Shown here: one piece after another, positions 8,252 to 58,968 of the stretch
How the letters are laid out: each line of letters opens with the position of its first letter
Position numbering within the stretch: the first letter of the stretch is position 1
IMG/VR virus record: IMGVR_UViG_3300018080_000199
Span: 1-59,678 of that record
DNA length: 59,678 nt
Strand: one strand, 5' to 3'
From: a virus
Taxonomy: Duplodnaviria; Caudoviricetes
Notes under the pieces: model-generated
Told to the model about the DNA's origin: nothing
The model's input: only the letters and a program-made list of their open reading frames with translations
Database searches by the model: none
Made by a program: the position numbers and the translations under genes

Positions 8252-8276
8252 TGCCATCCTCCCATGATTTATCAAA

Positions 8277-9952: not shown

Positions 9953-9963
9953 CCTACGCTCCC

Positions 9964-10514: not shown

Positions 10515-10525
10515 TATATTTCCCT

Positions 10526-40383: not shown

Positions 40384-40397
40384 GTTAGGCTCCTTGT

Positions 40398-40430
40398 GGG
40401 AGGGGATAATTCAGTAAATTATCCCCTCCC
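40398..40430. terminator. 14-bp-stem hairpin containing a variant of the 15-bp palindrome
   Basis: GGGAGGGGATAATT-CAGTA-AATTATCCCCTCCC. Confidence 0.6.
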
Positions 40431-40442
40431 TTGGGATCATTC

Positions 40443-41708
40443 TTATACAAAACTACCGCCATCTACAAGTGCCACAGAGATTTCATCAGGACTACCATTA
40501 TCATGCACAATTGAACTATTATCAATCTTAACACCAACTCCATTTGCAGTCACACTAACGGCTGCAATAGTTGCACCTGTCGCTGTATCAGAGGCAACAC
40601 TGAGCGTAGAACCAGCACCACCACTAATACCATTACCCTGTGCAGCAAGCCGAAGGGTGGCTGAATCAACCTCAAGACCAGTACCATCAAGATCATCAAC
40701 ATCAAGCCCAACACCATTGGCAGTCACATCGACCGGGATCACATTTCCACCAGTCGTACTATCAGGTTTCACACTGATAGTGTTTGAAGAGATCTGAATA
40801 CCGTTACCAGCACTAAGACCTCCACCCTGATTCATAAGTACCCACTCACCAGTCGGCACAGTACCGTCAAACGAGTAAGTGTTATTCTCATTAACACTAT
40901 TCTCACCGGAACACAGAATGGCATTACCTTCAGCAGCATCAGTAGTTGCTGAGCCAGTATTCGTTGTGCCATTGAAGCTCACAACCTTACCATCATCAGT
41001 TGCATCCGTATAAGGAGCAATAAGTGCCGTAGCTGTTGAGAGTGCTGCGCGAGTTCCAGAAGGCACAAAACCACCAGCGCCAGTAATAACCTTAACCCAT
41101 GCCGATCCATTATACTCCCAGATATCACCAACAGTTGCAGTTGCCAAATCACCAGCACCATTAGCAGTTGTCACAACATACGAATCGCCAGAACTAGGTG
41201 AAAGTCCTTCAATCGTTAATGCAGCATCATTACCAACAAGGCCCATTACACTTGCGGGTTCCTTCCAAGAACGACCTTCAACTGCATTATTAATCTCAGT
41301 TGCGATCTTACTTGCGGTCCACAGATCAGCAGTCGTAGTACCAGCATCATCAACTGCTACACCAGCATCCTCAGGCTTACCATTAGCATCAATCTTAATC
41401 AGATTGTCCTGAGTACCAGAAATATCTGAAAGAATCTCTTCAAAAGCTGAACCAGTATCAATGAACAGTTCCTTTGTGTCAGTGGCATAGAAGAACCGTC
41501 CTGCCTCATAGGTCGTAGGAATATTAGCTAATGTATCTTCAATAACACGACCAACAAGTAGGTTATTACTACCATCACCAATAAACAATTCCTTATAATC
41601 ATCGGTAGTAAAACCAAGTTCACCAGCAGCAAGCGTAATACCATCAAGCTCTGCCTTTGTACCACGACGAACCTTAATCGTTGCACCATACCATATTCTG
41701 TTACGCAT
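40443..41708 (-). CDS. fibre protein with Mtd-N-like domain and RxRxWYG leader
   Basis: N-domain nearly identical to 39121-40383; Gly-rich shaft repeats; ends VDGGSFV. Confidence 0.8.
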   Translation of the reverse strand: MRNRIWYGATIKVRRGTKAELDGITLAAGELGFTTDDYKELFIGDGSNNLLVGRVIEDTLANIPTTYEAGRFFYATDTKELFIDTGSAFEEILSDISGTQDNLIKIDANGKPEDAGVAVDDAGTTTADLWTASKIATEINNAVEGRSWKEPASVMGLVGNDAALTIEGLSPSSGDSYVVTTANGAGDLATATVGDIWEYNGSAWVKVITGAGGFVPSGTRAALSTATALIAPYTDATDDGKVVSFNGTTNTGSATTDAAEGNAILCSGENSVNENNTYSFDGTVPTGEWVLMNQGGGLSAGNGIQISSNTISVKPDSTTGGNVIPVDVTANGVGLDVDDLDGTGLEVDSATLRLAAQGNGISGGAGSTLSVASDTATGATIAAVSVTANGVGVKIDNSSIVHDNGSPDEISVALVDGGSFV

Positions 41709-41719
41709 TGTTCCTCTCC

Positions 41720-41887
41720 TTAAACAAAAGTACCGCCATCAATAGTATCTGAGTCTAATTTAGATTTGATATAAGTATACAATGCTGCAAGAGTAAGCTT
41801 AAATGATGTTAATGTATTAACAATATACATTAACGCTGAATCATTAGCTGTACCCGTACTAAGATCACTAACCTTTTGGTCAGCCAT
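41720..41887 (-). CDS. small fibre-adaptor-like protein (55 aa, below ORF-track cutoff)
   Basis: MADQKVSDL...TIDGGTFV; GGAGGG RBS. Confidence 0.7.
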   Translation of the reverse strand: MADQKVSDLSTGTANDSALMYIVNTLTSFKLTLAALYTYIKSKLDSDTIDGGTFV

Positions 41888-41889
41888 AA

Positions 41890-42075
41890 CTAACCCTCCA
41901 ACAAGATATGCTCACCTGTTTCTAATAGGAGGGCATCACCATCCTCCTTTAAAAGATTACCAATTACTGGACTTGGCTCCTCACCAAGTACCGGAATAAG
42001 AATACTGTCCCGAAGTGGTGAGCCAAATATAACATTCCTAATAATACCGCTAAATCTCCTTAAAATACGGGCCAT
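41890..42075 (-). CDS. small structural protein
   Basis: C-terminal LLKEDGDALLLETGEHILLE motif. Confidence 0.6.
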   Translation of the reverse strand: MARILRRFSGIIRNVIFGSPLRDSILIPVLGEEPSPVIGNLLKEDGDALLLETGEHILLEG

Positions 42076-42438
42076 TTAAGCTCTCCTTTGCTGCCACAAA
42101 AACCCACCAATCGGTATCCCAATAACCAATGGAATAATTGGATATTGTAACATTGCTTCCATGCTAGCGGCATGTATCAATACATCACACATTATTGAGA
42201 ACAAACCAATTCCTATTAATAATTTAGGAAATTGTTTAGGCGTTTCTTTTACAGGAAGAAAGAAATGTCCACACAATACCCCAAACACTAAAGGAAATGT
42301 TAAACTTCTTAATCCATAATAACATATCACTTCTGAGATTGTATCTCCCCGTTCTGGATTAAAGAACGGTATAAAATCATATATTATGAGTCCAAGACTC
42401 ATTACTACCAATATGATTTTAGTTATTTTTCTTAGCAT
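42076..42438 (-). CDS. multi-TM membrane protein (holin-like)
   Basis: Three to four hydrophobic segments. Confidence 0.5.
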   Translation of the reverse strand: MLRKITKIILVVMSLGLIIYDFIPFFNPERGDTISEVICYYGLRSLTFPLVFGVLCGHFFLPVKETPKQFPKLLIGIGLFSIMCDVLIHAASMEAMLQYPIIPLVIGIPIGGFLWQQRRA

Positions 42439-42519
42439 CTTTAGCCTTTTTCTTCAATTCTTTATTACTTTTAAACATGGGTACTTGTACTTCTGGTTCC
42501 TTCTTCGTTTTCTTAGCCA

Positions 42520-43197
42520 TTACGGGACCGTCCTCATGAAATGCACAAGCTTGATATTCACATCAGTAGAACCTGTTGACTCATAACGGAAACGTATATA
42601 GATACCAGCAGGTACAAGTTTCGCATCTGGGCAACAACATGAAAATTCCTGGTCTGCCCATACATAATTTGTTTCCGCAAATTTACCAAGCACAAAACCA
42701 GCACCATAACCAAGGATATTATCTACATCTACCATTTCAATTTCAACATAATCACCATCATTCACATTACCATCAAGTTTATATGCTGCACCTTGAAGCA
42801 TCATGTTTGCAGCATATTTGGCTTCAAACTCATTAGTCTGTCCCGCTGTAGCAGTAAGATTAAATCCTTTACGGAAAACATTATACCCACTAAGATCTTG
42901 GAAATTTTTTAATTGAACATCTTGAATACTACTCGGCTCTGCTGGTGGCCAATCATCTACAGCTTTCTGTGCAGCTATAGCATTTGCAAGTGTAGTTTGC
43001 TGCTCAGATGTTAGGGCTTCAGTAGTTATGACCTTACACTCTGTACCATTATTACAAACTACAAAATCTACCCCAGGAAGAGCATCACTAATGCGTTGAG
43101 CTACATTCTCTGGCTCACCTTGATGCCCTATATTATACGTATCGGGGTTGCTATGGATGGCGTCCCCAAACTCTCTATCATAAATATATTCGGCCAT
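42520..43197 (-). CDS. putative virion structural protein
   Basis: Beta-rich C-terminal domain; within the fibre gene run. Confidence 0.55.
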   Translation of the reverse strand: MAEYIYDREFGDAIHSNPDTYNIGHQGEPENVAQRISDALPGVDFVVCNNGTECKVITTEALTSEQQTTLANAIAAQKAVDDWPPAEPSSIQDVQLKNFQDLSGYNVFRKGFNLTATAGQTNEFEAKYAANMMLQGAAYKLDGNVNDGDYVEIEMVDVDNILGYGAGFVLGKFAETNYVWADQEFSCCCPDAKLVPAGIYIRFRYESTGSTDVNIKLVHFMRTVP

Positions 43198-43206
43198 AGT
43201 TTCCCC

Positions 43207-44370
43207 TTACGTTTGATAAGTAAGCTCAAGCTTCATATAGTTAAATGTTTGACCAATAGCATTATTCTGCCATGTTAGCCCGCAATGATCACCGGCTACC
43301 GCACTACTAAACACTCCTGATACATCAAAAGCTGTTATCTCTCCTGCTGTAGCAGATATTGTAATACCTTGTGATTCACTATGGTTATTATATTGTTCTC
43401 CAACAGCCCCATAGTCACTTGTTAAAGATACACTTTGACTTGTTATAGTCCCTCCTAGTACAGCAATAACTTTTATTGTAAGTATTGCTATCGCGTCATC
43501 TGGAATCTCAAAACTAATATTAAAAGAAGCATTCTGGCCAACTGCTCGTACACGGTGATCGCCTAGAGTATCATTACCAGCATTTTCGATAAGGATTGTT
43601 TTCTGCTGACCACCACCAAAATGTATTGTGCCACCATTAGTTATAGTACGTGTACCAGAAATATCACTACTAATAATATAAAGATCACCAGTGTCTACAT
43701 CATAAGCTACTGAGCCAGAGATTTTAGCAATAGCTACAAAAATCTCTCCTGTACCGTCAACCTCAATACAAGTACCACTAGCAGCTATAAGATCCTCAGC
43801 AGTAACAATTACTTGTCCTGTATCATCAACATAAATACCTACTCCCGTACCTGTTACTACAACTTCATTAACCTTAGCTTGAATTTCTCCAGTTGTTGTC
43901 GCGTCTCCGATACCATACCCATTTGTCACATTGATATTATGACCTATATAATTAAGATTTCCAGCAGAACAATGCAGAACATTAGCTGATACTAATGCTG
44001 TTGTAGATTTTACAAAAATACCAGCAGTTCCACTTCCTGAAGTCTTAGAAAATATTGTACCTGATGAAGCAAAACATATATTAACTACAAATTCACTATA
44101 ATCATTAACTACATGGTTGCCTTGTATAGTTGCTAATGGAGCATGTAAAGTAACATAAGATGGTAAAGTTAAATTCTCAATATATATTGCACCATCTAAT
44201 ACTGTAATACCAATAGGATTACTAGAGCTAGGTGTATCACCACTAGCAGCCGTAATAGCTGCTCCAATAGTTAAGAATGGTTCACTAACACTTTTACCTG
44301 TATTAGTATCTAAACCATATTTAGCAACAAAATATTGCTTTTGTGCATCAGGTAATGGAGTATAAGCCAT
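43207..44370 (-). CDS. tail fibre/spike protein (beta-helix-like)
   Basis: YFVAKYG.DTN.G.S..EPFLTI.AAI pectin-lyase-like start; G/T/I/V-rich. Confidence 0.65.
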   Translation of the reverse strand: MAYTPLPDAQKQYFVAKYGLDTNTGKSVSEPFLTIGAAITAASGDTPSSSNPIGITVLDGAIYIENLTLPSYVTLHAPLATIQGNHVVNDYSEFVVNICFASSGTIFSKTSGSGTAGIFVKSTTALVSANVLHCSAGNLNYIGHNINVTNGYGIGDATTTGEIQAKVNEVVVTGTGVGIYVDDTGQVIVTAEDLIAASGTCIEVDGTGEIFVAIAKISGSVAYDVDTGDLYIISSDISGTRTITNGGTIHFGGGQQKTILIENAGNDTLGDHRVRAVGQNASFNISFEIPDDAIAILTIKVIAVLGGTITSQSVSLTSDYGAVGEQYNNHSESQGITISATAGEITAFDVSGVFSSAVAGDHCGLTWQNNAIGQTFNYMKLELTYQT

Positions 44371-44379
44371 AACTCTCCC

Positions 44380-45129
44380 CTATAAGATCCACCACTCAAC
44401 ACCATCACAAAAAACATCTATGGACTCGTATTGAGCAGTGATATCTACTGTTAATGCATCATCAATAGTCTCACCACCATTACCATCAACAGTAACATTA
44501 TTAGCACTAGCACTAATCTTTTTAATTCTATAAATTACTCCAGCAGATGAAGCAGCAGCAGGAAGATTCACTGTTATTGCTCCACCAGTAGTATCACAAA
44601 TTATAACAACTGCACCTGCTGCTGTATATGGGCTATCAGTATTGTCTATATTTACGAAAGATAATACCCCTGCATTCTGCCATCCCACACCAGCAGCTTG
44701 CCCACTATCTGCTGCTAATAGTTGCCCATCTGAGCCTACAGGAACACGCGCAAAACTATTATCCCCCGAAGCTGCAAGGATATCTCCTTTAGCATCTGCT
44801 TGAGTGTGCATCACTGCACCAGCAGTTGCTACATTAGTGGCATCTGTAACATCGGCTAAAGGTTCAATACCATCAAGCTTTGAAATCTGGGCTGCTGTAG
44901 CTACGCCATTCTGTGCTGCTGTAGCAAGTTGAATATCATCAGTACCATTAGTATGAGTAGCTGCATGGATCGCTGCTGCTTTGGTATCAAGGCCATCCCT
45001 CACAGCTTTTTCCGTAGGCATATTAGCATCAGTTCCAGGATCACCTACACTGGTGACGGGGGTATATCCGTCCTCAATGTGATTGCCATCAGCAGCTTTC
45101 GGTATCACACCTGCTGTGAGATCTGCCAT
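44380..45129 (-). CDS. tail fibre protein
   Basis: KLDGIE..ADVTDA; KGDIL...RVPVGSDGQLL.ADS; CDTTGGAITVNLPAA..ETIDD..DG.EWWI. Confidence 0.7.
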   Translation of the reverse strand: MADLTAGVIPKAADGNHIEDGYTPVTSVGDPGTDANMPTEKAVRDGLDTKAAAIHAATHTNGTDDIQLATAAQNGVATAAQISKLDGIEPLADVTDATNVATAGAVMHTQADAKGDILAASGDNSFARVPVGSDGQLLAADSGQAAGVGWQNAGVLSFVNIDNTDSPYTAAGAVVIICDTTGGAITVNLPAAASSAGVIYRIKKISASANNVTVDGNGGETIDDALTVDITAQYESIDVFCDGVEWWIL

Positions 45130-45140
45130 AATATAATTCC

Positions 45141-45581
45141 TTAAATCACGAAGACTTGTTCTTCATCAGTATTATAAATAAGCTCTTCATCAGTATTATA
45201 AAGGGCTTCTGGATTCTCAAGGAACTCACACATCATTTCAAATGCTACATCATAGACTCCACAATTCTGATCACGCTGAGTAATAATATCGTTGGGATTC
45301 GAAATAATAACACCTTGCCAAACCTCATTATTATGATCCGTTATCTTAACCTGTAATCCGGCTGATGCTTCAAGTGCATCTCGAAATTGTTCCGCTACTG
45401 TTTGCGAAAGTGCATGAATAACGAATGAACGAATCTGTTTATTCGGCCATCCTGAATCTTTAACACTCTTAAGCTCCCCGCCAATTGTTTCACGGTTCTC
45501 GGTATATGTATTAATACGCCGAATATCCCCAAGCTCAGGATTACGTAAAACAACATAGCCACCACTATAATAGAAGATCAC
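45141..45581 (-). CDS. minor tail protein (distal-tail-like)
   Basis: LRNPELG...ITDHNNEVWQGVIISNP; paralog of 38328-38717. Confidence 0.6.
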   Translation of the reverse strand: MIFYYSGGYVVLRNPELGDIRRINTYTENRETIGGELKSVKDSGWPNKQIRSFVIHALSQTVAEQFRDALEASAGLQVKITDHNNEVWQGVIISNPNDIITQRDQNCGVYDVAFEMMCEFLENPEALYNTDEELIYNTDEEQVFVI

Positions 45582-46078
45582 GCCGCGGCTCCTGTGATCG
45601 TGTATGTGACATTAAGAGTATCACCACTTTCTGCTGATACATCGCCACTTGTGAAAAGTCCAGTAGCCCATAGGATTCCAGAACTACCGCCCTTCGTATT
45701 ATCACTACAACAAAAGATTCCTGATATTGTTGTTGTAGCATTAATACTGAAAGCTACATATGTAGAGTTAGTAATCTCTTGCCCAGATGCCGCATCTTCA
45801 GTCCATTCTTGACGTGTTGCTTCTGTGTAGCTTTGATTCTCAGTCCAATTTGGATGAGAAGCCATGGTATCAGTAGCAAGTAGATCAGCGAGATCAGCAT
45901 CATTAAGAAGGCCAAGATACCAAGTTGCTGTTTGAGTATCATTATGAAACATCACATCAAGGATATTGTCAAGACCCTCATTAACCACAGCATTATCTAT
46001 ATCATATATTCCAATTATTTTTCCGTTTCGGATATGTTCGACACGGAAATGTCCTTTAATCTTGAATCCACCTTTCAT
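45578..46078 (-). CDS. putative tail/baseplate protein
   Basis: NAVVNEGL..ILD...WYLGL...GDTLNVTYTI; follows the tape measure gene. Confidence 0.6.
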   Translation of the reverse strand: MKGGFKIKGHFRVEHIRNGKIIGIYDIDNAVVNEGLDNILDVMFHNDTQTATWYLGLLNDADLADLLATDTMASHPNWTENQSYTEATRQEWTEDAASGQEITNSTYVAFSINATTTISGIFCCSDNTKGGSSGILWATGLFTSGDVSAESGDTLNVTYTITGAAA

Positions 46079-46087
46079 ATTAATCTC

Positions 46088-49000
46088 CTAACGTAATTTT
46101 AAGGTTCCGCGTCGAATTTGTCGCCGTAATAATTTACCAAATTTTGTTACGTCATAGCTCTCATTACCACTACTTTGCATATTGACATTCACATCTCCAA
46201 CATTATTAACAATACCGCCACGTTGGAAACTCTGAACGCCGGCATTCATAGCAACAAGTTGGGAATAGAACTTTCGCGTAGCTCCAGCATTCATTACGAA
46301 CTCACCAGGACTCAACATTGCTGGTACTCGATCCGTACCTACAAATCCGCCATGTTGAAAACCCCCGCGAGCTTTAATATCAGATCTAATACCTTGTAAT
46401 TCTGTTATCATATTCTTAAATACTGCTTCATTACGTTTCAAAATATCATTACGTTCTTGATCTCTTTTTTGTTGTTCAGGGATAAGTCCTTCTAATTGTT
46501 TTTGGGCATCTTCAAAAGATTTTTGTGCTTTATCTCTTGCTTCTTCTAATCCTTTTATAGTAGCTGTTTGTTTTTCTTCTGCTGCAATAATAGTTGTAGC
46601 TGTATCTGTAAAAAGTTTAATATTTGGAGTTAGATCCTTTGTCATACCAAAAACTACTTGCTCATTTATTGCAATTAAATCCTTTGTTATTTTATTTAAG
46701 TTTTCAATTGTAGGGGCACGAATAAAAGCATCAATCTTCTCAGAAATAACTTGTTGTCGTGTACCTGCTCTTAGAGTAGTAATATCTTTACCAAAAGCTT
46801 TTAGAGCTTGTTTTAATGATCCTATTTGAACTGCTTCCTCATCTACATATGCTTGTCGAGCTTTAACAGCTTCTTCAGCTATTTTTTGTTGTTCAGCAAC
46901 AACTTTTCGAGCATTATCAAGTTGAAGATTAGTAATTGCTGCTTCTTGAAGTTTTTCTAATTGATCTTTACGTTTTAGCAATTGTTCTTCAAGCCTAAGT
47001 CTTGTATTAATATCAAGTACATTTGCCTTTTCACGTAAGGATTTTCGAAAATCTTCAATACGTACAAGAGCACCAGTAATATTTGTAATCTGTTGATCAA
47101 TATCTTTTGTACCAAGAATATCCTTAACACTAATTGCAGTAATATCAAGATACCCATCTTTAATTTCTTGTAAATTACGTTTGCGTTCCGCTGCTTCTTC
47201 TTCAGCCTTTTTCTTTTGTTCTTCAGCAAGACGTTTTTGTTCTTCAACTAAACGAATCTGTTCTAATGTTAAGCGATTTTGAAGTTTAAGAATATCTGTA
47301 CGATCAATCTCAACTTTACGAAGTTCACGAATCTTCTCATCATACTCTTTAAGTTTACGAACTTCTCTAGCAAGACTAGCTTCTCTTTCACGTTGTCCTC
47401 TAGCAATATCTCTCTGAGCTTTAATAACATTAGGATCAATCGTATCAATACCAATGATACCACGCCTACTACTACGTGTAATACGTGTATATTGTTCTGC
47501 ATTTTTAGCGGCATCAAGAAGTTTCTTTTGATCATCAAGCTCTTTATCTGATATCTTTTTCTTAAGGTTTGCAATTTTAGTTTCTTGTTCCACACGTCTA
47601 CGCTGTAATCGAACTAATTTCTCTTCGCTTCTCTCATTTTTATCGGCAACTTGATCTTGAATTTTAGCTATTTGATCTACAATTCCAAGCTGCTCTTTAT
47701 AGAGTTCTGCAACAGCGCGAATACTCTCTTGGTCAATACGTCCAAAGAGTGCTGTACGTTGTTTCTGAAGTTGTTCAAAACGCTGTCGAAGAAGATTTAA
47801 TTGTTCTGCTGGATCTTCAATCTCCCCAAGTCTAAACTCAAATGTTCTTTGCTCTATAGAACGTTTAAGATCATTAATAGTTTTAATAGAATTCTCAATA
47901 AGTTTCTGTGAGTCCTTAATAACTTTATCTACATCTTTGATGCCTTTCTGAAGTTCTTTAACAACTTCACGATAAGCAGTCCTAAGATTTGTAGTAATCT
48001 CTTTATCTATAGCTACTTGTTCATCAATAAGTTTTGTATTCTCTGATTGCAAGGTAGCAATAGCTTGTCTAGCTATTTGTACTTCTTGAGTATAAAAATT
48101 ATCTATAACACGTAAAAGATCCCTATATTCACGTTTCTGTTGTTCAATAGCTCTTTCTCGGGCTTCTTCTTGTTGTGCTAAAGCTTCCTCAGTTACCTTT
48201 GTCATTCTATCAAGAAGAATACGAGTAGCAGCCCCAAGAGCTAATAATGCAGCCGCAACAGGATGCGCGATAGCTAACTTACCTAAAGATGCAGCAGCAT
48301 AAATAGCAGCAGGAGCTAAAAGTCCAGTAAGTCCCTCAGCTAAAGCCTTAACAATACCTGATAAGCCGCCAAGAGGTTCTGTAACTCCTTGCACAACCTC
48401 TAAGAATACAGTACCAAACTCCTCAGTAAAATAATTCTTTATCTTTTGTACTTCGATCTTAATATCACGACCTACATTTTCCATTGTTTCTTTTGTTGCT
48501 GTACGGTAAGATTCTTGAGCATTTTGAATTTCTTTCCAGTTTTGTTCAAAAGTCTCAAGACCACGACCTGCAAAAATCATAGCACCAGAGATAGCTCTAA
48601 TACGTCCAAAGAGTTTACCAAGTTCTGTAGAACTTCCCTGAGTACGTTCTTCTAAACGCTGTAATACTCCACCAAAACCAAACGTCTTAATAGCTGCTTC
48701 ACCAGAGTCAACACCTAATTCCTTAAAGAACTTGGACATTTCCTTAGTAGGACGTATAAGCTTTAAAAGGATGTTACGAATTAAAGTCTGAGCTTTCTCA
48801 AACGGCACACCACGAATTGTTACTGTAGTAATTGCAGCCGCAAGATCATTAAAACTAAGACCTAAATTCGCAGCAGGAACAGCAGTAATACCAATTGTAT
48901 TTGCCATCTCATCAAGACGAACACGGCCAAGTTCAATAGTCTTGAATGTTTGTGCAGCAATATCCCCAGTATCCTCCATACTAAGATTAAAGGATTTCAT

Positions 49001-50134
49001 CACAGCAGAAAGAAGTTGCACAGAACTAGTAGCATCTGAGACACCAACTAATGCAAGCCTATTGGCTTCTTCAAGAAAACCAAATACTTCAGCGCCTTTA
49101 GCAACCTGGTTAGATAATGTTTGATATGCTGCTTCAGTCTGATCAAGAAGTTCAATACCAAAAGAATCAGATAATACCCTAAGACCAGCCGCCCATTCTT
49201 GAACGGCAAGTTGATTCTGTTGTGAAATTGTACGTAGCTCAGAAATACGTATTGAAAATTCTTGTGCAGTGCCAATTGCTTCACGCATAGATCTTAACAA
49301 TAAACCAATAGATCTATAAATAAGTTGTGATTGAATAATACGTGCCATTGACTGCCAAGAAAGGGTCAAATCTTTAACGCGATCCTTAGTATCAGCTAGA
49401 CTCTGATTAACAGGACGTAAACCACCTTGAACATTTTGTAAAGTATTTCCTACATAAGTTAAAGTAGCTTGGAATTTTTGGCCATCAGTCGTTGTACCCT
49501 GTATAATTCTTTGAGTACGATCCATTGCTGTATTAAATTTTGTACTTTCTTTAACATTTTGGACATACCCACTTGCTATTTGTTGATTAATAGTATTTAA
49601 TCGTGCTTGGGCTCTAGTACTTTGCTCTGCTAATCTTGCTTGAGCATTAATTTGTGCTTGTGTAGCCTGTACCGTTCTTTCTCTTGCTACAATACCTTCT
49701 CCCGCAGCATTTGTAGTTACTCGTAATTGTGTTCCTTCTTGCGTGAGAACAGTAATATACTCACGTTTCTTTTGTAATTCCTTATCTAATACAGTAACCT
49801 CATTTAGTCTAGTTTTAGTACGTTCTGCAAGTAACGCATTAGCATCAAAACCAGCTTTAGCTTCTTTCTCTGTGCTTGCAGCAGCTTCAGCTTGTTTTGC
49901 TGTTATCTTTTCAAGAGCAGTAACAAGGTTAGCTAACCCTTCAAATGACCCAACTTGAGTATTAAATCTCTCCATTGTAGCTATAAATTGAGTCATACCT
50001 TCGTTAACTTGAATAACCTTCTTGCGAAGATTCTCAAGTCCAAGCATAGCTTGAGATACATCAAAGGCAATGGAGCTAGCAAAATCAGCTTCATCACCAG
50101 CAGTACCATACCATTTTCTAATTTTATAAATCAT
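46088..50134 (-). CDS. tape measure protein
   Basis: 1348 aa, long helical/coiled-coil, TP901-like core (AAYQTLS..., FKTIELG); C-terminal GTDRVPAMLSPGEFVMNA. Confidence 0.92.
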   Translation of the reverse strand: MIYKIRKWYGTAGDEADFASSIAFDVSQAMLGLENLRKKVIQVNEGMTQFIATMERFNTQVGSFEGLANLVTALEKITAKQAEAAASTEKEAKAGFDANALLAERTKTRLNEVTVLDKELQKKREYITVLTQEGTQLRVTTNAAGEGIVARERTVQATQAQINAQARLAEQSTRAQARLNTINQQIASGYVQNVKESTKFNTAMDRTQRIIQGTTTDGQKFQATLTYVGNTLQNVQGGLRPVNQSLADTKDRVKDLTLSWQSMARIIQSQLIYRSIGLLLRSMREAIGTAQEFSIRISELRTISQQNQLAVQEWAAGLRVLSDSFGIELLDQTEAAYQTLSNQVAKGAEVFGFLEEANRLALVGVSDATSSVQLLSAVMKSFNLSMEDTGDIAAQTFKTIELGRVRLDEMANTIGITAVPAANLGLSFNDLAAAITTVTIRGVPFEKAQTLIRNILLKLIRPTKEMSKFFKELGVDSGEAAIKTFGFGGVLQRLEERTQGSSTELGKLFGRIRAISGAMIFAGRGLETFEQNWKEIQNAQESYRTATKETMENVGRDIKIEVQKIKNYFTEEFGTVFLEVVQGVTEPLGGLSGIVKALAEGLTGLLAPAAIYAAASLGKLAIAHPVAAALLALGAATRILLDRMTKVTEEALAQQEEARERAIEQQKREYRDLLRVIDNFYTQEVQIARQAIATLQSENTKLIDEQVAIDKEITTNLRTAYREVVKELQKGIKDVDKVIKDSQKLIENSIKTINDLKRSIEQRTFEFRLGEIEDPAEQLNLLRQRFEQLQKQRTALFGRIDQESIRAVAELYKEQLGIVDQIAKIQDQVADKNERSEEKLVRLQRRRVEQETKIANLKKKISDKELDDQKKLLDAAKNAEQYTRITRSSRRGIIGIDTIDPNVIKAQRDIARGQREREASLAREVRKLKEYDEKIRELRKVEIDRTDILKLQNRLTLEQIRLVEEQKRLAEEQKKKAEEEAAERKRNLQEIKDGYLDITAISVKDILGTKDIDQQITNITGALVRIEDFRKSLREKANVLDINTRLRLEEQLLKRKDQLEKLQEAAITNLQLDNARKVVAEQQKIAEEAVKARQAYVDEEAVQIGSLKQALKAFGKDITTLRAGTRQQVISEKIDAFIRAPTIENLNKITKDLIAINEQVVFGMTKDLTPNIKLFTDTATTIIAAEEKQTATIKGLEEARDKAQKSFEDAQKQLEGLIPEQQKRDQERNDILKRNEAVFKNMITELQGIRSDIKARGGFQHGGFVGTDRVPAMLSPGEFVMNAGATRKFYSQLVAMNAGVQSFQRGGIVNNVGDVNVNMQSSGNESYDVTKFGKLLRRQIRRGTLKLR

Positions 50135-51376: not shown

Positions 51377-51418
51377 TTGTTTCCCTTTCAGACTAATAAT
51401 TTCCTAAATTAAACTTAT

Positions 51419-51450
51419 CCTATGGCCTGACCCGAAGATCAGGCCATAGG
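51419..51450. terminator. hairpin after the major tail gene
   Basis: CCTATGGCCTGA...TCAGGCCATAGG, 12-bp stem. Confidence 0.7.
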
Positions 51451-51458
51451 AATACAAA

Positions 51459-51977
51459 CTACTGACGTACATCTAGTGCCTGAGTAGCATTACACTGACC
51501 TGTAACTGCAACCGTACCAGCCGAAAGATCATGTGCCAAACTGGTATAACGGAAATCAGGGAGTGTAATAATTTCATCAAGCTCATCACCGCAAGGTGGA
51601 GCATAATGAATCTCAATATCAACGGCATAAGGCTCACAAGGATCATTCGAACTAGAAACCCATCCAGCCGCTTCACCACGCTGCTTGAGTGCATCTTCTA
51701 CAGTAGGAGTACCCCAACCAGTCGTAGAGACTGCTCGGAGAAACTCCCACGTAAAATCAAAACGCACATCCATGGGTTCCTCGTCACCTTCCTTAACAGT
51801 GTCAAGGAGGCCACGATCCCGAACGTACTCAATTGTCTTACGTTCATCATACGTGAGCGTGCCTTCACCGATCTTTATTTCCAAGCTCTGCTGTGCAGAA
51901 CCTGTGCCACCATCCTTGAGATAGATAGTAGCATTCTTTAGATCAATTTGTGCACCAAACCACTCACGAGTTCTCAT
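51459..51977 (-). CDS. major tail (tube) protein
   Basis: Directly upstream of the frameshifted chaperone; beta-rich, acidic; strong RBS and downstream hairpin. Confidence 0.8.
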   Translation of the reverse strand: MRTREWFGAQIDLKNATIYLKDGGTGSAQQSLEIKIGEGTLTYDERKTIEYVRDRGLLDTVKEGDEEPMDVRFDFTWEFLRAVSTTGWGTPTVEDALKQRGEAAGWVSSSNDPCEPYAVDIEIHYAPPCGDELDEIITLPDFRYTSLAHDLSAGTVAVTGQCNATQALDVRQ

Positions 51978-51992
51978 ATCGTTACTCCTTAC

Positions 51993-52727: not shown

Positions 52728-53177
52728 CTATGTAACCAATCCTAAATGTTGAAGAAGAATTTGAGTATTATTACGCCCCTTAATTGCAACATTAATATGG
52801 GGGTATTCTTTCTTTAATCTTGTCTCTCGACTCATATCCCCAGTATATACCACATACGGAATATTCCGATGTTGATTTTCTAAATTATCTACAACTTGTT
52901 TCCCTGCTTCCTTTGTCTCTAAGTTAAGATCAACTATAGCACAAATTATCGAAGCGGCATTTTTATCTAAAACTTCCAATGCATCCTTAGAATTATCTAC
53001 TACTTTTGTTTCCATGCCAAATTTAGTTAATACTTTAATCAAGTACTTGGAGATATGTTCATCATCTTCAACTACTAAGCAAAATCCTTTAGGGCAAGTT
53101 ATATGCCGCATAGCTACACGCATATTCTGTGCCCCTGAAAAGAACTTTGAAGCTGTCTCTTTATTGAGCATCTTCAT
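52728..53177 (-). CDS. stand-alone response-regulator receiver (CheY-like) protein
   Basis: LVVEDD, AIVDLNL (phospho-Asp), VVYTG, IK. Confidence 0.85.
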   Translation of the reverse strand: MKMLNKETASKFFSGAQNMRVAMRHITCPKGFCLVVEDDEHISKYLIKVLTKFGMETKVVDNSKDALEVLDKNAASIICAIVDLNLETKEAGKQVVDNLENQHRNIPYVVYTGDMSRETRLKKEYPHINVAIKGRNNTQILLQHLGLVT

Positions 53178-53388
53178 TGACCTTATATTTATTTAATACA
53201 TCTTTAACTTCTACCATTAAACTATTGCAAGCTCGAACAAGTTCTGTAAGACTCCCCATAAGTTCTTTTGTCTCAGATAATAAGGACTCAACTTGCTTTT
53301 GTTGTGCAATATTCTGTCTATATAAAACCCCTATAGCTGTAGCTAGAGACACTATTACAGCAATAATAGCAGATAGAGGTATTTCCAT
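53161..53388 (-). CDS. small membrane protein with coiled coil
   Basis: N-terminal TM (IIAVIVSLATAIGVLY) followed by heptad repeats. Confidence 0.65.
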   Translation of the reverse strand: MEIPLSAIIAVIVSLATAIGVLYRQNIAQQKQVESLLSETKELMGSLTELVRACNSLMVEVKDVLNKYKVNEDAQ

Positions 53389-53399
53389 GGTTGTCCTTC

Positions 53400-53684
53400 C
53401 TACTGACTGATTCGCACAGATGCAGTACCACTTGTATATTCACCAGTCTTAAATCCAACTCGATAATTAATATTCTTTTCTGGATCATCACCAACACGTT
53501 CTGCATTCGCTGTGAATGTTTCTACATCTTGCCAAGTCTGACCATCAAAAGATCTTTGAAGTGTTACTGTACCTGCCCATGTACCACTAATAGATAAATT
53601 AAATGAAACATCCCGTAGACGTATAACTGCCCATTCATCTGCTGCCGCAATATCTTTCTCAACAACGGTAATGGGATCACTCAT
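53400..53684 (-). CDS. small beta-rich virion protein
   Basis: ISGTWAGTVTLQRSFDGQTWQDV. Confidence 0.6.
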   Translation of the reverse strand: MSDPITVVEKDIAAADEWAVIRLRDVSFNLSISGTWAGTVTLQRSFDGQTWQDVETFTANAERVGDDPEKNINYRVGFKTGEYTSGTASVRISQ

Positions 53685-54178
53685 GATTTAACTCCTTCTG
53701 AACTCTCTAAAAATTCAATTTGGGCCTCTACCTCTTCATTATGCCACTCATTAGGTAATCTATTGGTGGTCTCATGGGCTTGAATATACATCGCAAGCCT
53801 ATAATCATAAAAATCAATAAACTGAAACTCAAAACGTCTGTGATCCCAAATAATATGCCATGTTAATTTTGGATCAAAAGTACTTGGTAAATCTCTCATA
53901 TCTATAATGAGATCGCGCCTACCTAACCCATAATAAGCACCATATTGAAAATTCTTATTCGCAGCTAAAAATGTAAGATCATAAGCAAACTTACGTGTAA
54001 TATTATTAGGGAGTAAAATTGCTCTTCTAATACGTAGCACATCATATGTTATCTCTTGTACTCCAGTACGAACATTAATGGTCTTATTAGTTGGACGATA
54101 CAAATGAATCTCCACCCCGTTTTGACGTTTCAAACGGTATAAGGCTCGACGCATTTGTATTCGTAGAGTATAGGCCAT
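53681..54178 (-). CDS. putative head-closure protein
   Basis: Position after the capsid gene; INVRTG motif. Confidence 0.55.
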   Translation of the reverse strand: MAYTLRIQMRRALYRLKRQNGVEIHLYRPTNKTINVRTGVQEITYDVLRIRRAILLPNNITRKFAYDLTFLAANKNFQYGAYYGLGRRDLIIDMRDLPSTFDPKLTWHIIWDHRRFEFQFIDFYDYRLAMYIQAHETTNRLPNEWHNEEVEAQIEFLESSEGVKS

Positions 54179-54246
54179 AACTACTCCTGGTTATAATTTG
54201 GTAAATTATGTTGTAGAACATAATTTAGCAAATCATAAACGGGGGT

Positions 54247-54280
54247 GGGTTGGTGTACGGCTTTCACCGTACACCAACCC
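54247..54280. terminator. hairpin after the capsid gene
   Basis: GGGTTGGTGTACGG-CTTTCA-CCGTACACCAACCC, perfect 14-bp stem. Confidence 0.8.
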
Positions 54281-54293
54281 TATGCGGGACGCA

Positions 54294-55688
54294 TTACCCA
54301 AGAAGCACAGCACCGAGATCTGTATCAAGAACCTTGACCCCACACAGAAGGTCAACCGTCACCAGATGACCCTGCTTCGTGCCATTGTACGTGATCGTAA
54401 CACGAATTGCAATGTTATTGTAATTCGCGACTGCACTCAGCGCACCAGCACCACGACGCGGCATGGCAAGAGGACGAGACACGAATGCAATGGCATTCCG
54501 ATGGAAAGCAAAGTTAAAGCTTCCAGCGGGACCAATACACACGGCATCACCATCAGAGATAGCCGCATCAAGAGGCCGATCCAGAGTAATACCCACAAGA
54601 GCATTAACTCCAATGATCGTATAAACTGCTGTGGCAGTAGAATTACCAAACGCCACCATCTGACCAACCTGAGGAGCAACGGTGAAACCATCCACCGTGA
54701 TCTCCTTTGCGTAACCTGCTGCATAACCAGCCAGAAGGTCCACAGCACCAGGAGTATAGACGGTAACATCAGCATCATCCACGACTGCCCGAACAAGACC
54801 AGGAGCAAGTACCGTGATAGAGGTCGGAGTTGCACCACCAACCGTACTGACCACGCGAAGCGGGGTCATATCGCCTTCAATAGTCATCCAGCTTCCTGCC
54901 GTAATAGCAGCAGAGAAACCGTCAACTGTGAAAGTAGTACTACCCGCAGCATAACCAGTACCATTATTAATCTCACCAGTTGTCACAGTATTGCCGCTGG
55001 TGACATAGCTCATGTTCTGACACATAAAGTGATCAAAACCGAGCTTCCGACCAAGACTTGCTTCTCGAAGTGCCGTACCATCATCACCAACCTTATCGGC
55101 AGTGAGGAAGATATCGGTATCAAGAGCCTGAGTCTCACCATCAGGGTTCCAGATCAGACGCCGACCCTGAGTATATGCCTTATTCTCATTCATGACCTTA
55201 CGAGTATTAAGGATATAGCTCTTTGCGGTCGTGCTACTGAGACCACCAATCACGCCTGCATTGTTTGCCAGGAACTGAGGCCATTGACCAAGAACCACCT
55301 TATCTGCTGCCTGAGCAATAGAAAGAACTGCCGGCTGCAAATAAAGCTGTACCAAGTCCTTCATAGACTTCGACTCTTCTCCATCACGAATCAGGAAAGA
55401 AGTATGGAAGTGCTGATCCAGAGGAACCTGGATATTTGTGGATTCGGCATCTTGCACAGTCACATCATCCGTATCCACCTTACGTGTTGCTTCAAACTCA
55501 CTTGGTTGGCGCGTATTGACAACATCCCCTTCTGCTGCGATTTCCTCAGAAAAATCACGGTAGACCAGATTTGTCGCAACCATATTCTCCACGAGGATAG
55601 CAACAGATTCATTGGCCCAAATTTCAGGCATGAGGGCGTCGTTGTCATTTGCACCAAACCAGCGACGTGCTCTCAAAGAGTAGTACAT
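54294..55688 (-). CDS. major capsid protein (P22-coat-like HK97 fold with inserted domains)
   Basis: PEIWA, VYRDFSEEIA.EGDVVN, LGRKLGFD, AFHRNAIAFVSRPL, VDLLCGVK.LD. Confidence 0.9.
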   Translation of the reverse strand: MYYSLRARRWFGANDNDALMPEIWANESVAILVENMVATNLVYRDFSEEIAAEGDVVNTRQPSEFEATRKVDTDDVTVQDAESTNIQVPLDQHFHTSFLIRDGEESKSMKDLVQLYLQPAVLSIAQAADKVVLGQWPQFLANNAGVIGGLSSTTAKSYILNTRKVMNENKAYTQGRRLIWNPDGETQALDTDIFLTADKVGDDGTALREASLGRKLGFDHFMCQNMSYVTSGNTVTTGEINNGTGYAAGSTTFTVDGFSAAITAGSWMTIEGDMTPLRVVSTVGGATPTSITVLAPGLVRAVVDDADVTVYTPGAVDLLAGYAAGYAKEITVDGFTVAPQVGQMVAFGNSTATAVYTIIGVNALVGITLDRPLDAAISDGDAVCIGPAGSFNFAFHRNAIAFVSRPLAMPRRGAGALSAVANYNNIAIRVTITYNGTKQGHLVTVDLLCGVKVLDTDLGAVLLG

Positions 55689-55698
55689 GCTTAATCTC

Positions 55699-56592
55699 CT
55701 AAATCTTACTCAAATCAATCTTACCTTCTTTTCGTAACCGGATATACTCCTCCGTTTTTAACTTACCAATATTCGGAGTCCCACCTTGACCGCTTATGGC
55801 ATTACCGTCACCACCTAATCCTGCTGTCGAAGTGCCTTTAAAGAGATTACCAAACTTCTCAGGCATTGTTTTCATCATTTCTACAGCCTTACCAACGGTG
55901 AGGTCAAGTTCAGTCTCATTACCATCTTCATCTTTGCCGGTAATCTTTGCCTTAGCAATAAGATTTCCCGTGGGTGCTCCAGCCTCATCTAACTCTTCAG
56001 CCAGATAAGTAGTTTGACGCAGAATAGCTACAATTTGCGGGGGCGAGAACGCTTCATTGGCTACTGCTGCATCTGTGATAGCTCTAGTAATTGTTTCACC
56101 TGTATAACGTTCCTGAAGGGAATTAAACTTTTCCTCCAGTTCTTTAATTTTCTCCGCGCCTTCCTTTCTAAGTCTCTCAGCTTCCTGCTTCGCAAGTTCT
56201 TCTTTAGTTTTCAAAGAATCTGAAAGTTCTTTAACACGATTCTGAAACTTTACTCGCTCTTCAGCAGAAAGTGCGCCGGATTGTAACTCAGAAACTAATC
56301 CTTCAAGCTGAGTAACTTTATCCTGCAAATTTCTGCGGTTCTGAGCCATAATCCGATTCACTTGATCTTGCGTAAATGTCTTAGGCTTAGTACCATCATC
56401 GCCACTTCCCCCACCATCTCCACTCCCACCGCCATCGCCTCCAGTGCCGCTATCAGTACCGCCACCATCACCAGTTCCTCCATCATCATCATCACCACCG
56501 CCATCCGTACCACCACCATCGTCTGCACTTCCATACCATCCACGATGCCTAATTTCGTAAATTAATTCTGCCAAACTTACATTCAAATACAT
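55699..56592 (-). CDS. capsid scaffolding protein
   Basis: G/D-rich linker, KTFTQDQVNRIM, coiled coil, C-terminal EEYIRLRK; start at ATG 56592 behind AAGGAG. Confidence 0.85.
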   Translation of the reverse strand: MYLNVSLAELIYEIRHRGWYGSADDGGGTDGGGDDDDGGTGDGGGTDSGTGGDGGGSGDGGGSGDDGTKPKTFTQDQVNRIMAQNRRNLQDKVTQLEGLVSELQSGALSAEERVKFQNRVKELSDSLKTKEELAKQEAERLRKEGAEKIKELEEKFNSLQERYTGETITRAITDAAVANEAFSPPQIVAILRQTTYLAEELDEAGAPTGNLIAKAKITGKDEDGNETELDLTVGKAVEMMKTMPEKFGNLFKGTSTAGLGGDGNAISGQGGTPNIGKLKTEEYIRLRKEGKIDLSKI

Positions 56593-56602
56593 CACACTCT
56601 CC

Positions 56603-57049
56603 TTATGTAACCCTTGTGATCTGTACGTTCTCCGGATCAATCAAATAAGGCTTCAAGTAATTCCAGGCCATCGCGCTTGGAATACCGGCCAAGAAATGTT
56701 CCGGAGCAAACGAACGATCAAAAGTAGACCTCGCTGAAGCGAGTCCTTGGGACTTCATCCCAAGTAACTCAAGCTCTCTTTCGGGATCAATTCCGTCTAA
56801 CAACGCAAAAGCTCCCTCTGCACACGCATATTGAATATCTAACGGTACTGTTGTGTCTCCGTATCTTGGAAATTGTTTTTCTTGGTCCTCGTCAGCTTTG
56901 ATACCAATGAAGTTAAGACGATCAATACGTAGCGTCATATCCTTGAGGGCTTTCTCTTTATCATCATCATCTGCTTGATCCCAGATGGTGACATTATACC
57001 GATTCTCAAAATAAGTATCAGCATCTGCTACTGTGATATAAGGGTCCAT
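56603..57049 (-). CDS. head-tail adaptor protein
   Basis: YITVADADTYF..R, KEKAL, QFPR, VP.DIQYACAE, YLKPYL. Confidence 0.8.
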   Translation of the reverse strand: MDPYITVADADTYFENRYNVTIWDQADDDDKEKALKDMTLRIDRLNFIGIKADEDQEKQFPRYGDTTVPLDIQYACAEGAFALLDGIDPERELELLGMKSQGLASARSTFDRSFAPEHFLAGIPSAMAWNYLKPYLIDPENVQITRVT

Positions 57050-57052
57050 AAT

Positions 57053-57172
57053 TTACCTCTTTGGGCACTTTTTTCCGGCTTTTTGACGACGACCCAGTTT
57101 ACTTTTCTTAGCTTGATAACTACCTTTATATGGGCCACTCCCATCCCTAACACCACGTGCATTACGTCCCAT
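57053..57172 (-). CDS. small basic protein (39 aa)
   Basis: MGRNARGVRDGSGPYKGS...; GGAGG RBS; TAATG coupling. Confidence 0.5.
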   Translation of the reverse strand: MGRNARGVRDGSGPYKGSYQAKKSKLGRRQKAGKKCPKR

Positions 57173-58968
57173 TACTTAGCCTCCCCACGGGTCTTATCTT
57201 TGACATCTACATCTTGATCTTTAATTTTCTGAGATTCGGTTTTCTCATCTTTAGCTGAGTTATTAGGATCAGCGTCAAGATCAGGTACACCACGTGCTGC
57301 TGCACGAGTCTGAGCGGCTACAATACGTGCTGCACGTTTGGAGTGTTCAACTTCCGCCTTCTCCACTTCACCTTCCGGATAGCCCTTGGCTTTGGATGCT
57401 GTCTCCGCAGAAAGAAGTCCTTGCTCAATATCTTTGGCAAGGGTATCAGAGTCAGTGATAGGAATGATTGAGTTATTAATCTCTTCCTCAATCTTCCTCA
57501 TCTCTGCGCCAGGAATTTTATCAGATAGAAGTGTATTCGCAATTTGCTTTGAAACTTCCTTCTGATATGTGATACTAGGAACATCGGATCTGAGTTTTGA
57601 GAGCTTCTCAGATTCCTCAAGACGCTGATTATCGGATTTAATAGTGTAATGAGTTGGATAAAGTATTTTGGCCTTTTTATTGGAGTTTTCATACATAGCC
57701 CAATATTCAGCTATACGAGTCTCACCATGCTGGAGTTCTTGTCCAACATAGGAAAGGCCAGCCTCAAGAGATTGCTCATCCATCGCACGAGACTCTGCTG
57801 AAATCTGTTTTCGTGGAACCAGATTAGAGAGCGCAAGATTAATAAGTAGCTTAATATCTTTTTTGATTTGTTCCTGCTTCTCCATACTTACCCGAAGTGG
57901 TTCCGGAGAAGGATGAATATATGCAGGAGGTTCAGTACCAATAGGATATCGACGCCCACGTGTAGCGCCAGTAACAATTTCTTGAGGTTTTGATATATTT
58001 GCAGCGGCTTGAGTACCAGGACGATCAAGAGCATCAAAATCATTGTCACTAGGATTGATAGGACGATCTTTCGCCCCGGCATAATTCTGACGAATATGGC
58101 CCGAGATTCTTCGGGGATCATACTGTTCCACATAAAAAGGGAAATTACTCTTGAAAGAGTAGTTCATATCAGCGGAGCAAAGATTGAGAAGAGCCACTTG
58201 ATAATCTGCTACATCCGTTAAAAGACTCTGAGATAATTCTAAAACTACAAACGGAATTCGAGTAATATCTAAAATTACAGGTTCCTTAGCTTCTTTACCC
58301 TGATCATCATAAGTCTGGACTCTAACCTTACCCTCTACACGATCAAAATACTTATATTGTGTTTTGATTCCCTTAGGAAGATTAGTAACCTCGTCATATT
58401 CATATATAAATTCTCGAAGAAGAAGTGCTCTAAGTTCTTCAGGATTATTATCTATATCATACGCCCAATTCCGAATATCCTGAGCAGAATATGTATAGAT
58501 ATATGGGTTCTTTCCCATTTGTTCAACCTGGGTATTTCCAAGTTCCCGTGGCATATCAATAAAGACCCCTACTTTCCCGTTTGTGAGAAGTTGAGGCAAT
58601 ACAAGAGAACCAATAAAATTATTCATGGTACGGGAATGTCTATCAACACCTTTATCTTCACCTTTGATAGCATTCATATAGCTAGGTGTACCATCTCGAC
58701 GCACAATATCAATCATACGTTGGAAGATGGCATTTACAATCTCGTTGATAGAACTTTTAGCAAATGCTGGTACGTATGAGATTTTACGGCGATTATTAAA
58801 ATCCCATTCATCCTCACGTTCTGAGAATTTTTCAAGATACTCTTCCATAAAAGCGTAGCCGCCTTCATAAGTAAGAGTATATTTGTCCCATAAACCCACC
58901 ATCACATCATATTGTGGGTGGGTTAATTCTGTGATGGATTCTTCACCGTACCAATATCGTGATCTCAT
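57172..58968 (-). CDS. portal protein
   Basis: YEGG...YLEKFSERE...FNNR, GKVGVFIDMP, PYIYTYSAQDIRNW, IPFV; follows the terminase. Confidence 0.88.
   Translation of the reverse strand: MRSRYWYGEESITELTHPQYDVMVGLWDKYTLTYEGGYAFMEEYLEKFSEREDEWDFNNRRKISYVPAFAKSSINEIVNAIFQRMIDIVRRDGTPSYMNAIKGEDKGVDRHSRTMNNFIGSLVLPQLLTNGKVGVFIDMPRELGNTQVEQMGKNPYIYTYSAQDIRNWAYDIDNNPEELRALLLREFIYEYDEVTNLPKGIKTQYKYFDRVEGKVRVQTYDDQGKEAKEPVILDITRIPFVVLELSQSLLTDVADYQVALLNLCSADMNYSFKSNFPFYVEQYDPRRISGHIRQNYAGAKDRPINPSDNDFDALDRPGTQAAANISKPQEIVTGATRGRRYPIGTEPPAYIHPSPEPLRVSMEKQEQIKKDIKLLINLALSNLVPRKQISAESRAMDEQSLEAGLSYVGQELQHGETRIAEYWAMYENSNKKAKILYPTHYTIKSDNQRLEESEKLSKLRSDVPSITYQKEVSKQIANTLLSDKIPGAEMRKIEEEINNSIIPITDSDTLAKDIEQGLLSAETASKAKGYPEGEVEKAEVEHSKRAARIVAAQTRAAARGVPDLDADPNNSAKDEKTESQKIKDQDVDVKDKTRGEAK

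Follow-up and report, generated by a model that had tools for sequence, protein, structure and literature searches.

A shared N-terminal leader on head, tail and fibre proteins of an uncultured siphovirus, and a candidate C39-like peptidase for its removal

Removal of propeptides from virion proteins is known in phages, and is usually carried out by a prohead protease acting on head proteins only or, in phage 80alpha, by a borrowed host ribosomal protease. T4 gp21 and HK97 gp4 are phage proteases that remove propeptides from head proteins, and among the viruses of eukaryotes the adenovirus protease and the vaccinia I7L core proteinase cut at short Gly-containing motifs. The subject of this work is a short leader, [RK]xRxW[YF]G, that heads six virion proteins encoded by IMG/VR virus record IMGVR_UViG_3300018080_000199 (Duplodnaviria; Caudoviricetes), together with a candidate leader peptidase encoded in the same record. 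The entire record was analysed (59,678 bp, estimated completeness 63%) and is referred to below as the window. What is new is that one short leader is placed on head, tail and receptor-binding proteins alike, in a clade of phages that is tracked by an unnamed family of leader-peptidase-like enzymes.

Two described systems are relevant here. Capsid and scaffold of 80alpha share a leader that is cut by the host protease Prp, the same motif is reported on the major tail protein of another phage, and cleavage of capsid and scaffold is dispensable although the scaffold leader is needed (PMC5744158). The published L27/Prp site is MLxx(D/N)LQ(F/L)F'A(S/H)KK (PMC9405229). C39 enzymes remove double-glycine leaders, cutting after the C-terminal Gly (PMC10318531).

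The genes that carry the leader in the window, and a fibre paralogue that does not, are as follows.

57172..58968, minus strand: portal gene; leader M-RSRYWYG at 58945-58968 (motif 58945-58965); predicted mature part starts EESITELTHPQYD
55699..56592, minus strand: scaffolding protein gene with its ATG at 56592; 21-amino-acid (aa) leader MYLNVSLAELIYEIRHRGWYG at 56530-56592 (motif RHRGWYG at 56530-56550)
54294..55688, minus strand: major capsid protein gene (P22 coat type); 12-aa leader MYYSLRARRWFG at 55653-55688 (motif RARRWFG at 55653-55673); predicted mature part starts ANDNDALMPEIWA
51459..51977, minus strand: probable tail tube gene; leader MRTREWFG at 51954-51977 (motif 51954-51974); predicted mature part starts AQIDLKNATIYLKDG
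46088..50134, minus strand: tape measure gene; leader MIYKIRKWYG at 50105-50134 (motif KIRKWYG at 50105-50125)
40443..41708, minus strand: Mtd-type receptor-binding fibre gene; leader MRNRIWYG at 41685-41708 (motif RNRIWYG at 41685-41705); PF18454 Mtd_N from residue 11
39121..40383, minus strand: leaderless fibre paralogue; starts MAATIKARRGTKAELDGITLAAGE, against MRNRIWYG-ATIKVRRGTKAELDGITLAAGE in the leader-bearing fibre; Mtd_N from residue 5

An example of an intact leader sequence is MRTREWFGAQIDLK. Roles were named from PHROGs for the portal, scaffold, major head protein and tape measure, and from Pfam for the capsid (P22_CoatProtein) and fibre (Mtd_N). The portal matches phrog_145 from residue 15 (expectation value (E) 1.7e-39), the scaffold phrog_206 and phrog_2303 (head scaffolding), the capsid phrog_283 from residue 14 (E 6.3e-59) and PF11651 (E 1.7e-28), and the tape measure 13 PHROG tape-measure families (best E 1e-28). 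The tube is the weakest of these assignments and is named as probable from its gene position, upstream of two chaperone-position open reading frames (ORFs) and the tape measure gene, and from a moderate structure model (predicted local distance difference test (pLDDT) 71), the best PDB matches of which are tail tube proteins with weak scores (E 2.4e-3).

A six-frame translation of the window (119,352 residues) contains exactly six matches to [RK].R.W[YF]G, and the motif is absent from all other ORFs and frames. The number expected from residue frequencies is 0.048, and 100 residue shuffles gave a mean of 0.08 and a maximum of 1. All six motif positions given in the initial annotation were confirmed, on the minus strand and each at the start of a structural gene, and its statement that the motif is missing from non-structural ORFs also held in the six-frame scan. 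Each motif lies 6-30 residues past the preceding stop codon and heads an ORF of 172-1348 aa. A Shine-Dalgarno sequence (GGAG, AGGAG or AAGGA) is located 4-8 nucleotides (nt) upstream of the ATG that includes the leader in five of the six genes, for example GGAG at 5 nt in the portal gene, AAGGA at 7 nt from the ATG at 56592 in the scaffold gene and AAGGA at 8 nt in the leader-bearing fibre gene; the ATG of the tape measure gene shares bases with the stop codon before it (TAATG). Across the six genes, no Shine-Dalgarno-like site was present at any downstream in-frame start within 40 codons. True starts downstream of the motif were ruled out by this start-codon check, and chance occurrence by the residue shuffles.

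A capsid search of IMG/VR returned 25 related loci, to which further loci were added for the pairing test described below. Among these relatives the same motif was found only in the closest one (locus L001, genome G001; 76% capsid identity), on scaffold, capsid, tube and tape measure. The window and G001 together have ten leaders, in which the motif positions do not vary and the x positions differ. Within the window, each of the two Arg positions is encoded by AGR in part of the genes and by CGN in the rest, the two x positions are free to vary and their codons are unrelated, and pairwise nucleotide identity over the 21-nt motif region is 48-76% among the six copies. Because the Arg codons are mixed, the x positions unrelated and nucleotide identity this low, the constraint acts on the peptide, as the initial annotation had argued. 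When 2.9 million viral contigs were searched, M-R-x-R-x-W-Y-G-A headed a long ORF in one of 72 pattern matches, and that one was G001 (the window's own record perhaps lying outside the search). On this sequence evidence the motif is lineage-specific, as a phage-encoded partner would predict.

The leader behaves as a separable module. Leaderless tube orthologues start M-AQID, and in the tube alignment those of L023, L005, L014 and L004 place their initiator Met at the Gly of the leader and all continue A-Q/R-I-D/E. The capsids of the cultured relatives phiCP34O, MAR10 and Hiyaa, which are distant, are leaderless and start M/V-A-N/V, aligning with the A-N-D that follows the motif in the window. 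Portals of G001, L002 and others have no leader, and that of G001 begins at the residue that follows the motif in the window; the tape measure orthologue of G001 starts MRYRLWYG, and those of L002 and more distant phages are leaderless. The fibre pair provides a boundary control inside the genome, the paralogue starting M-AATIKARRGTKAEL and the leader-bearing copy MRNRIWYG-ATIKVRRGTKAEL. Because leaderless orthologues and the fibre paralogue begin exactly where the motif ends, the leaders are discrete N-terminal add-ons of 8-21 aa placed before otherwise complete virion proteins; the earlier suggestion that a normal N-terminus follows the motif thus agrees with the leaderless tubes, the cultured capsids and the fibre paralogue. 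The N-termini predicted after leader removal are ANDNDALMPEIWA, AQIDLKNATIYLK, ATIKVRRGTK, TAGDEADF, SADDGG and EESITELTH.

The two fibre genes lie in tandem (39121-41708, minus strand), with an Mtd_N (major tropism determinant) domain heading both and the leader on the upstream copy only. The scaffold leader is followed by an acidic, Gly-rich stretch, and the G001 orthologue has MYEEMPRSRLWYG. It is the longest of the six, and its first part, VSLAELIYEI, loosely resembles the double-glycine leader consensus LSxxELxxIxGG, with seven residues more after it; the resemblance may be coincidence.

Other relatives carry a different leader in each phage, which is nonetheless common to scaffold and capsid and sometimes to the tube. 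Examples are SYQIKWVG, SYQIKWIG and YEIKWVG in L002, PTLACY and PVMACY in L014, RWLVAY and GWLVAY in L024, WLIPY, WIIAY and WIVPF in L010, and VVSRYG and VAKRYG in L023, which belongs with L022 to a separate lineage with leaders ending in RYG. An extension before the conserved capsid block was present in 29 of the 29 clade capsid N-termini listed, and most leaders of the clade have an aromatic residue at their end, with Ala, Ser, Asp or Glu next. Pairing of capsid and scaffold leaders was measured in 48 non-identical phages (51 loci minus three identical duplicates), using search windows set by rule, so that some leader junctions are imprecise. The mean best 6-mer score of a capsid N-terminus was 24.8 against its own scaffold and 15.1 against the scaffolds of other phages, and none of 5000 permutations reached the matched mean; the phage's own scaffold was the top scorer in 26/48 and among the top three in 35/48. 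The leaders thus show concerted evolution within genomes, and the motif of the window is best described as a local variant of a leader that a whole clade of uncultured P22-coat-type siphoviruses puts on scaffold and capsid. The number of leader-bearing proteins per phage, counted by eye in eight listed loci and the window with L011 left out, was two in L004, L005, L014 and L023, three in L002 and L010, four in G001 and six in the window, which is the extreme case seen. In a capsid tree (near-copies L008, L013, L018 and L022 left out), phages with Gly-ending leaders form a basal grade and those with Tyr/Phe-ending leaders a derived group.

A single capsid match was obtained in 185,579 species genomes. 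It lies on a 2.1-kb contig (L064; GC content 46.7%) in a metagenome-assembled genome (MAG) labelled uncultured Rhodoferax sp. and bears a Tyr-type leader, FFAPVY-ANDNDP; binning of so short a contig makes it a weak and unreliable hint of the host.

Because the leaders keep one pattern within a genome and differ between phages, one shared, co-evolving partner is most likely. The best candidate for that partner is the phage's own stand-alone C39-like cysteine peptidase.

10526..10945, minus strand: candidate leader peptidase, a stand-alone protein of 139 aa with a papain-fold (C39-like) cysteine peptidase prediction; TTG start, ORF open up to 10969

The product of this ORF aligns with homologues in G001 and G002, with Gln, Cys, His and Asp conserved. 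A full HMMER search collected 1082 representatives of the family at E<=1e-3, of which 309 reach E<=1e-10; its members are mostly about 150 aa long (listed members mostly 118-190 aa), and an alignment of 63 members shows C12 and H105 in every sequence and D116 in almost all. In the AlphaFold model (pLDDT 95.7), C12 starts a helix (12-20) and H105 starts a strand (105-109). The best PDB match found by Foldseek was 6mpz, the double-glycine leader peptidase LahT150 bound to a leader (E 2.7e-4, template modelling score (TM) 0.66), followed by PCAT1 and ComA, and a second aligner (VIA) gave Z scores of 11.6 for 6mpz, 11.4 for PCAT1 and 10.8 for ComA. PF03412 is carried by 19% of the members of one neighbour cluster in the ESM Atlas, and BFVD gave weak matches to small C39-like phage proteins without an assigned role. 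Sequence profiles were far less informative: no Pfam match was obtained for the 10526-10945 protein, PHROGs, NCBIfam and a PDB sequence profile gave nothing relevant for the family, and the sole Pfam match among the 63 members was of one member to PF09778, a papain-clan family (E 0.0039). PF03412 (C39) matched neither the protein nor the 63 members, and in 45 records it gave only two sub-threshold matches, both away from the peptidase loci. The divergent members P0052 and P0058 matched no viral contigs.

The window ORFs that were scanned gave no other protease family except a RadC-JAB protein, and no transporter. This RadC-like JAB protein (7814-8365, minus strand; PF04002, E 2.7e-39) was set aside as the protease, having no homologue in the leader-bearing G001 or G002. 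Phages with Gly-ending leaders (the window, G001, G002 and G003) have Q/T and E/Y at the two peptidase positions that are H and Q, conserved in FHxQE, in nine phages whose leaders end in Tyr/Phe. This link between leader type and peptidase residues was not used as evidence, the capsid tree with its Gly-ending basal grade needing only 1-2 changes to account for it.

The peptidase family was present in all six leader-bearing records of at least 54 kb that were found via the capsid (the window and G001-G005). One of these, of 68.9 kb, has terminal repeats, and another, of 124.7 kb, is rated complete. No member turned up in the fragments G006 (33 kb) and G007 (31.6 kb), and all three leaderless cultured relatives, whose genomes are complete, lack the family. 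In the opposite direction, a search with a central family member yielded ten new records, seven of them with a full-length clade capsid; a leader was present wherever the N-terminus was resolved, and was paired with that of the scaffold. The other three were G008, with only partial capsid-like matches, and G016 (24 kb) and G017 (20 kb), with none. Among 45 further peptidase-bearing records the capsid was found in 33, including all 12 that are at least 90% complete, and the 12 records with no capsid match are all estimated to be <=79% complete. Twelve of the 45 (G025-G032, G036, G041, G047 and G055) are classed as provirus by the source, and at least part of the clade may be temperate.

In the mechanism that we propose, the leader that the clade puts on scaffold and capsid has spread, in the lineage of the window, to the tube, tape measure, portal and one fibre. 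The peptidase would dock on the leader and cut at or next to the Gly, leaving the protein with the same N-terminal residue (Ala, Ser, Thr or Glu) as leaderless homologues once their Met is removed, and cleavage would time or license assembly. Removal of the leaders by a phage-encoded C39-like peptidase is the best reading of the sequences and models, and is held at slightly under even confidence; cleavage, the identity of the enzyme and a role in assembly are all proposed. The wider proposal is offered more tentatively: it supposes an undescribed virion-wide maturation system in a large clade of uncultured siphoviruses, in which a C39-like family would remove phage-specific leaders from head and tail proteins, leader and enzyme would co-evolve, and the set of substrates would grow by copying of the leader onto new genes, from scaffold and capsid alone up to the six proteins of the window.

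If true, this would be the first phage use of bacteriocin-type leader and leader-peptidase logic, licensing assembly of capsid, tail and receptor-binding fibre together. It would also give a function to a protein family of >1000 representative sequences, a simple rule by which structural genes, and the true N-termini of their mature products, could be recognised in uncultured phages, and a natural system of co-diverged protease specificity and substrate leaders, and it would bear on how phages keep their structural proteins from assembling too early. In the open-access literature, supplements excluded, no description of the window motif or of a C39-like phage maturation peptidase was found; a new enzyme family with unusually broad substrate coverage, within the known practice of propeptide processing of virion proteins, is plausible.

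C39 enzymes are the nearest structural relatives. The candidate shares with LahT150, PCAT1 and the ComA domains a compact papain fold of about 140 residues and a Cys/His active site, and the window leaders end in Gly, as do the leaders that C39 enzymes remove (PMC10318531). Unlike them, the phage protein is stand-alone, with no ABC transporter fusion and no PF03412 membership, the leaders end in W-[YF]-G and not in GG, GA or GS, and the substrates would be cytoplasmic virion proteins and not exported peptides. As with the prohead maturation proteases (T4 gp21, HK97 gp4, gp245 of the giant phage SPN3US), one phage enzyme would serve many propeptides at a short consensus site. Those proteases work inside the prohead on head proteins only, from a gene in the head module; in contrast, the window leader is also on the tube, tape measure and fibre, and the interval between portal and capsid, where HK97- and T4-type phages would have the protease gene, contains an Ad1 adaptor gene and the scaffold gene and no protease gene. 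Adenovirus protease and vaccinia I7L, as viral cysteine proteases that mature several virion precursors, are comparable in logic only; the viruses infect eukaryotes, the enzymes are of another protease clan, and substrates and timing are unrelated. The type IV prepilin signal consists of a short basic leader with Gly at its end and, after it, a hydrophobic helix that has Glu at +5. A signal of this kind was rejected for the window, where the leader is likewise short, basic and Gly-ending but polar residues follow (ANDNDA, AQIDLK, SADDGG, EESITE) in place of a hydrophobic segment.

Several points weigh against removal by this peptidase. Leader cleavage and the link between enzyme and substrate are what we infer from sequences and a model. 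Other papain-fold enzymes follow closely in the structural comparison, pseudomurein endoisopeptidase at Z 11.1 (a tie within 1 Z) and staphopain at 10.0, and a modelled fold alone does not fix the substrate; nor does the family have sequence-level membership in Pfam C39. At the P2 position the window leaders have Tyr/Phe, and most clade leaders end in Tyr/Phe without Gly. Canonical C39 enzymes accept no P2 residue but Gly, Ala or Ser, and the specificity of the peptidase would therefore have to differ from theirs. The peptidase gene sits among replication and regulatory genes, outside the structural block, and no cultured-phage homologue was found by tblastn with P0001 and P0031 against 50,697 phage records. 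The co-occurrence of leader and peptidase is confounded by descent, as each may be one ancestral gain, like other clade-specific genes. Pairing of the leaders is also incomplete, the phage's own scaffold not being the top scorer in 22/48 and 12/48 scoring below 20. Finally, a leader can matter without being cut, by analogy with 80alpha (PMC5744158).

This last point leads to a rival that we consider unlikely, in which the leader is a permanent, uncut N-terminal tag that either docks its carriers (to a common chaperone, the scaffold or portal, or one another) or holds back their self-assembly. The 80alpha scaffold leader, essential for assembly when its cleavage is not (PMC5744158), is a precedent for such a tag; all six carriers build large homo-oligomers, and binding of leader to leader or of leader to chaperone would also yield concerted evolution within a genome. 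It fits less well that orthologues and a paralogue work leaderless, so that the leader would not be part of the final structure, that the leader boundary coincides exactly with the N-terminal residue of leaderless forms, and that an enzyme resembling a leader peptidase tracks the clade.

Cleavage by a host protease, in the manner of the L27 mimicry of 80alpha and with the phage peptidase having another job, is an improbable reading by analogy, although it has a direct precedent. The initial annotation had drawn the 80alpha comparison, and it proved apt: like 80alpha/Prp (C108), clade phages pair similar short leaders on non-homologous scaffold and capsid and encode no classical prohead protease, and a tail-protein example of the 80alpha motif, on the major tail protein of another phage, is given by the 80alpha authors themselves (PMC5744158). 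The aromatic leader ends followed by Ala, Ser, Asp or Glu loosely resemble the F'A of the Prp site (PMC9405229), and the clade phages, like 80alpha, carry no Prp: Pfam Peptidase_Prp gave no match in the window, G001-G005 or the 45 further records (51 clade records), and control genomes gave the expected response in this search. However, [RK]xRxW[YF]G does not fit the published Prp/L27 site (PMC9405229), and nothing in the analysis supports the idea of a host-range checkpoint from the initial annotation. Unlike in 80alpha, leader patterns differ among the phages, which also encode an unrelated papain-fold peptidase of their own, and up to six carriers include the portal, tape measure and fibre. 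That related phages have sharply different leaders suits a partner that evolves fast in the phage better than an essential, conserved enzyme of the host; in unrelated viral contigs no ORF was seen to start with the exact motif; and the sole hint of a host is the unreliable Rhodoferax contig.

A function of the conserved element at the RNA or DNA level, as a shared signal for translation initiation or regulation and with the peptide as by-product, is very improbable, since the position of the motifs 0-20 codons from start codons and a TGG-TWT-GGT core similar in all six are outweighed by the mixed AGR/CGN codons at both Arg positions, the unrelated x codons, identity down to 48%, orthologous leaders of G001 that preserve residues and not bases, and other clade members that keep very different peptide patterns still common within each genome.

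Most genes of the window are on the minus strand. The structural block at 39-59.7 kb and the block that contains the peptidase gene are listed below.

39-59.7 kb, first part: large subunit of the terminase (truncated at the end of the window), portal, Ad1 adaptor, scaffold, P22-type capsid
39-59.7 kb, continued: small head/neck ORFs, probable tail tube, two chaperone-position ORFs, 1348-aa tape measure
39-59.7 kb, end: distal tail proteins, two tandem Mtd_N-domain fibres
9194-12105, minus strand: VRR-NUC-like nuclease, 112-aa ORF, NYN-domain protein, C39-like peptidase, 85-aa ORF, sigma-factor-like protein
9194..9952, minus strand: sigma-factor-like gene just downstream of the peptidase gene on the same strand, with sub-threshold Pfam matches to Sigma70_r2 and r4; context only

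Homologues of the nuclease, NYN-domain protein, peptidase and sigma-factor-like protein lie side by side in G002 by BLAST, and G001 gave no NYN match. Within the head-tail block, 52728-53177 (minus strand) encodes a response-regulator receiver domain protein (PF00072, E 3.3e-10), an odd site for a signalling domain, with a homologue in G001. On the plus strand at 54198-55694, a frame of 498 aa is open across from the capsid gene; neither G001 nor G002 has a homologue of it, and it most likely is no gene but a shadow ORF. The protein encoded at 27301-27819 (plus strand) contains a dATP/dGTP diphosphohydrolase N-terminal domain (PF18909, E 7.4e-31) and has homologues in G001 and G002; a dATP/dGTP diphosphohydrolase domain is part of the gene set of phages that substitute 2-aminoadenine for adenine. 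At 29570-32533 (minus strand), a 427-aa protein of no known family, a radical SAM protein and a family 2 glycosyltransferase are encoded in a row, and all three, which could be a modification module, are kept in G001 and G002.

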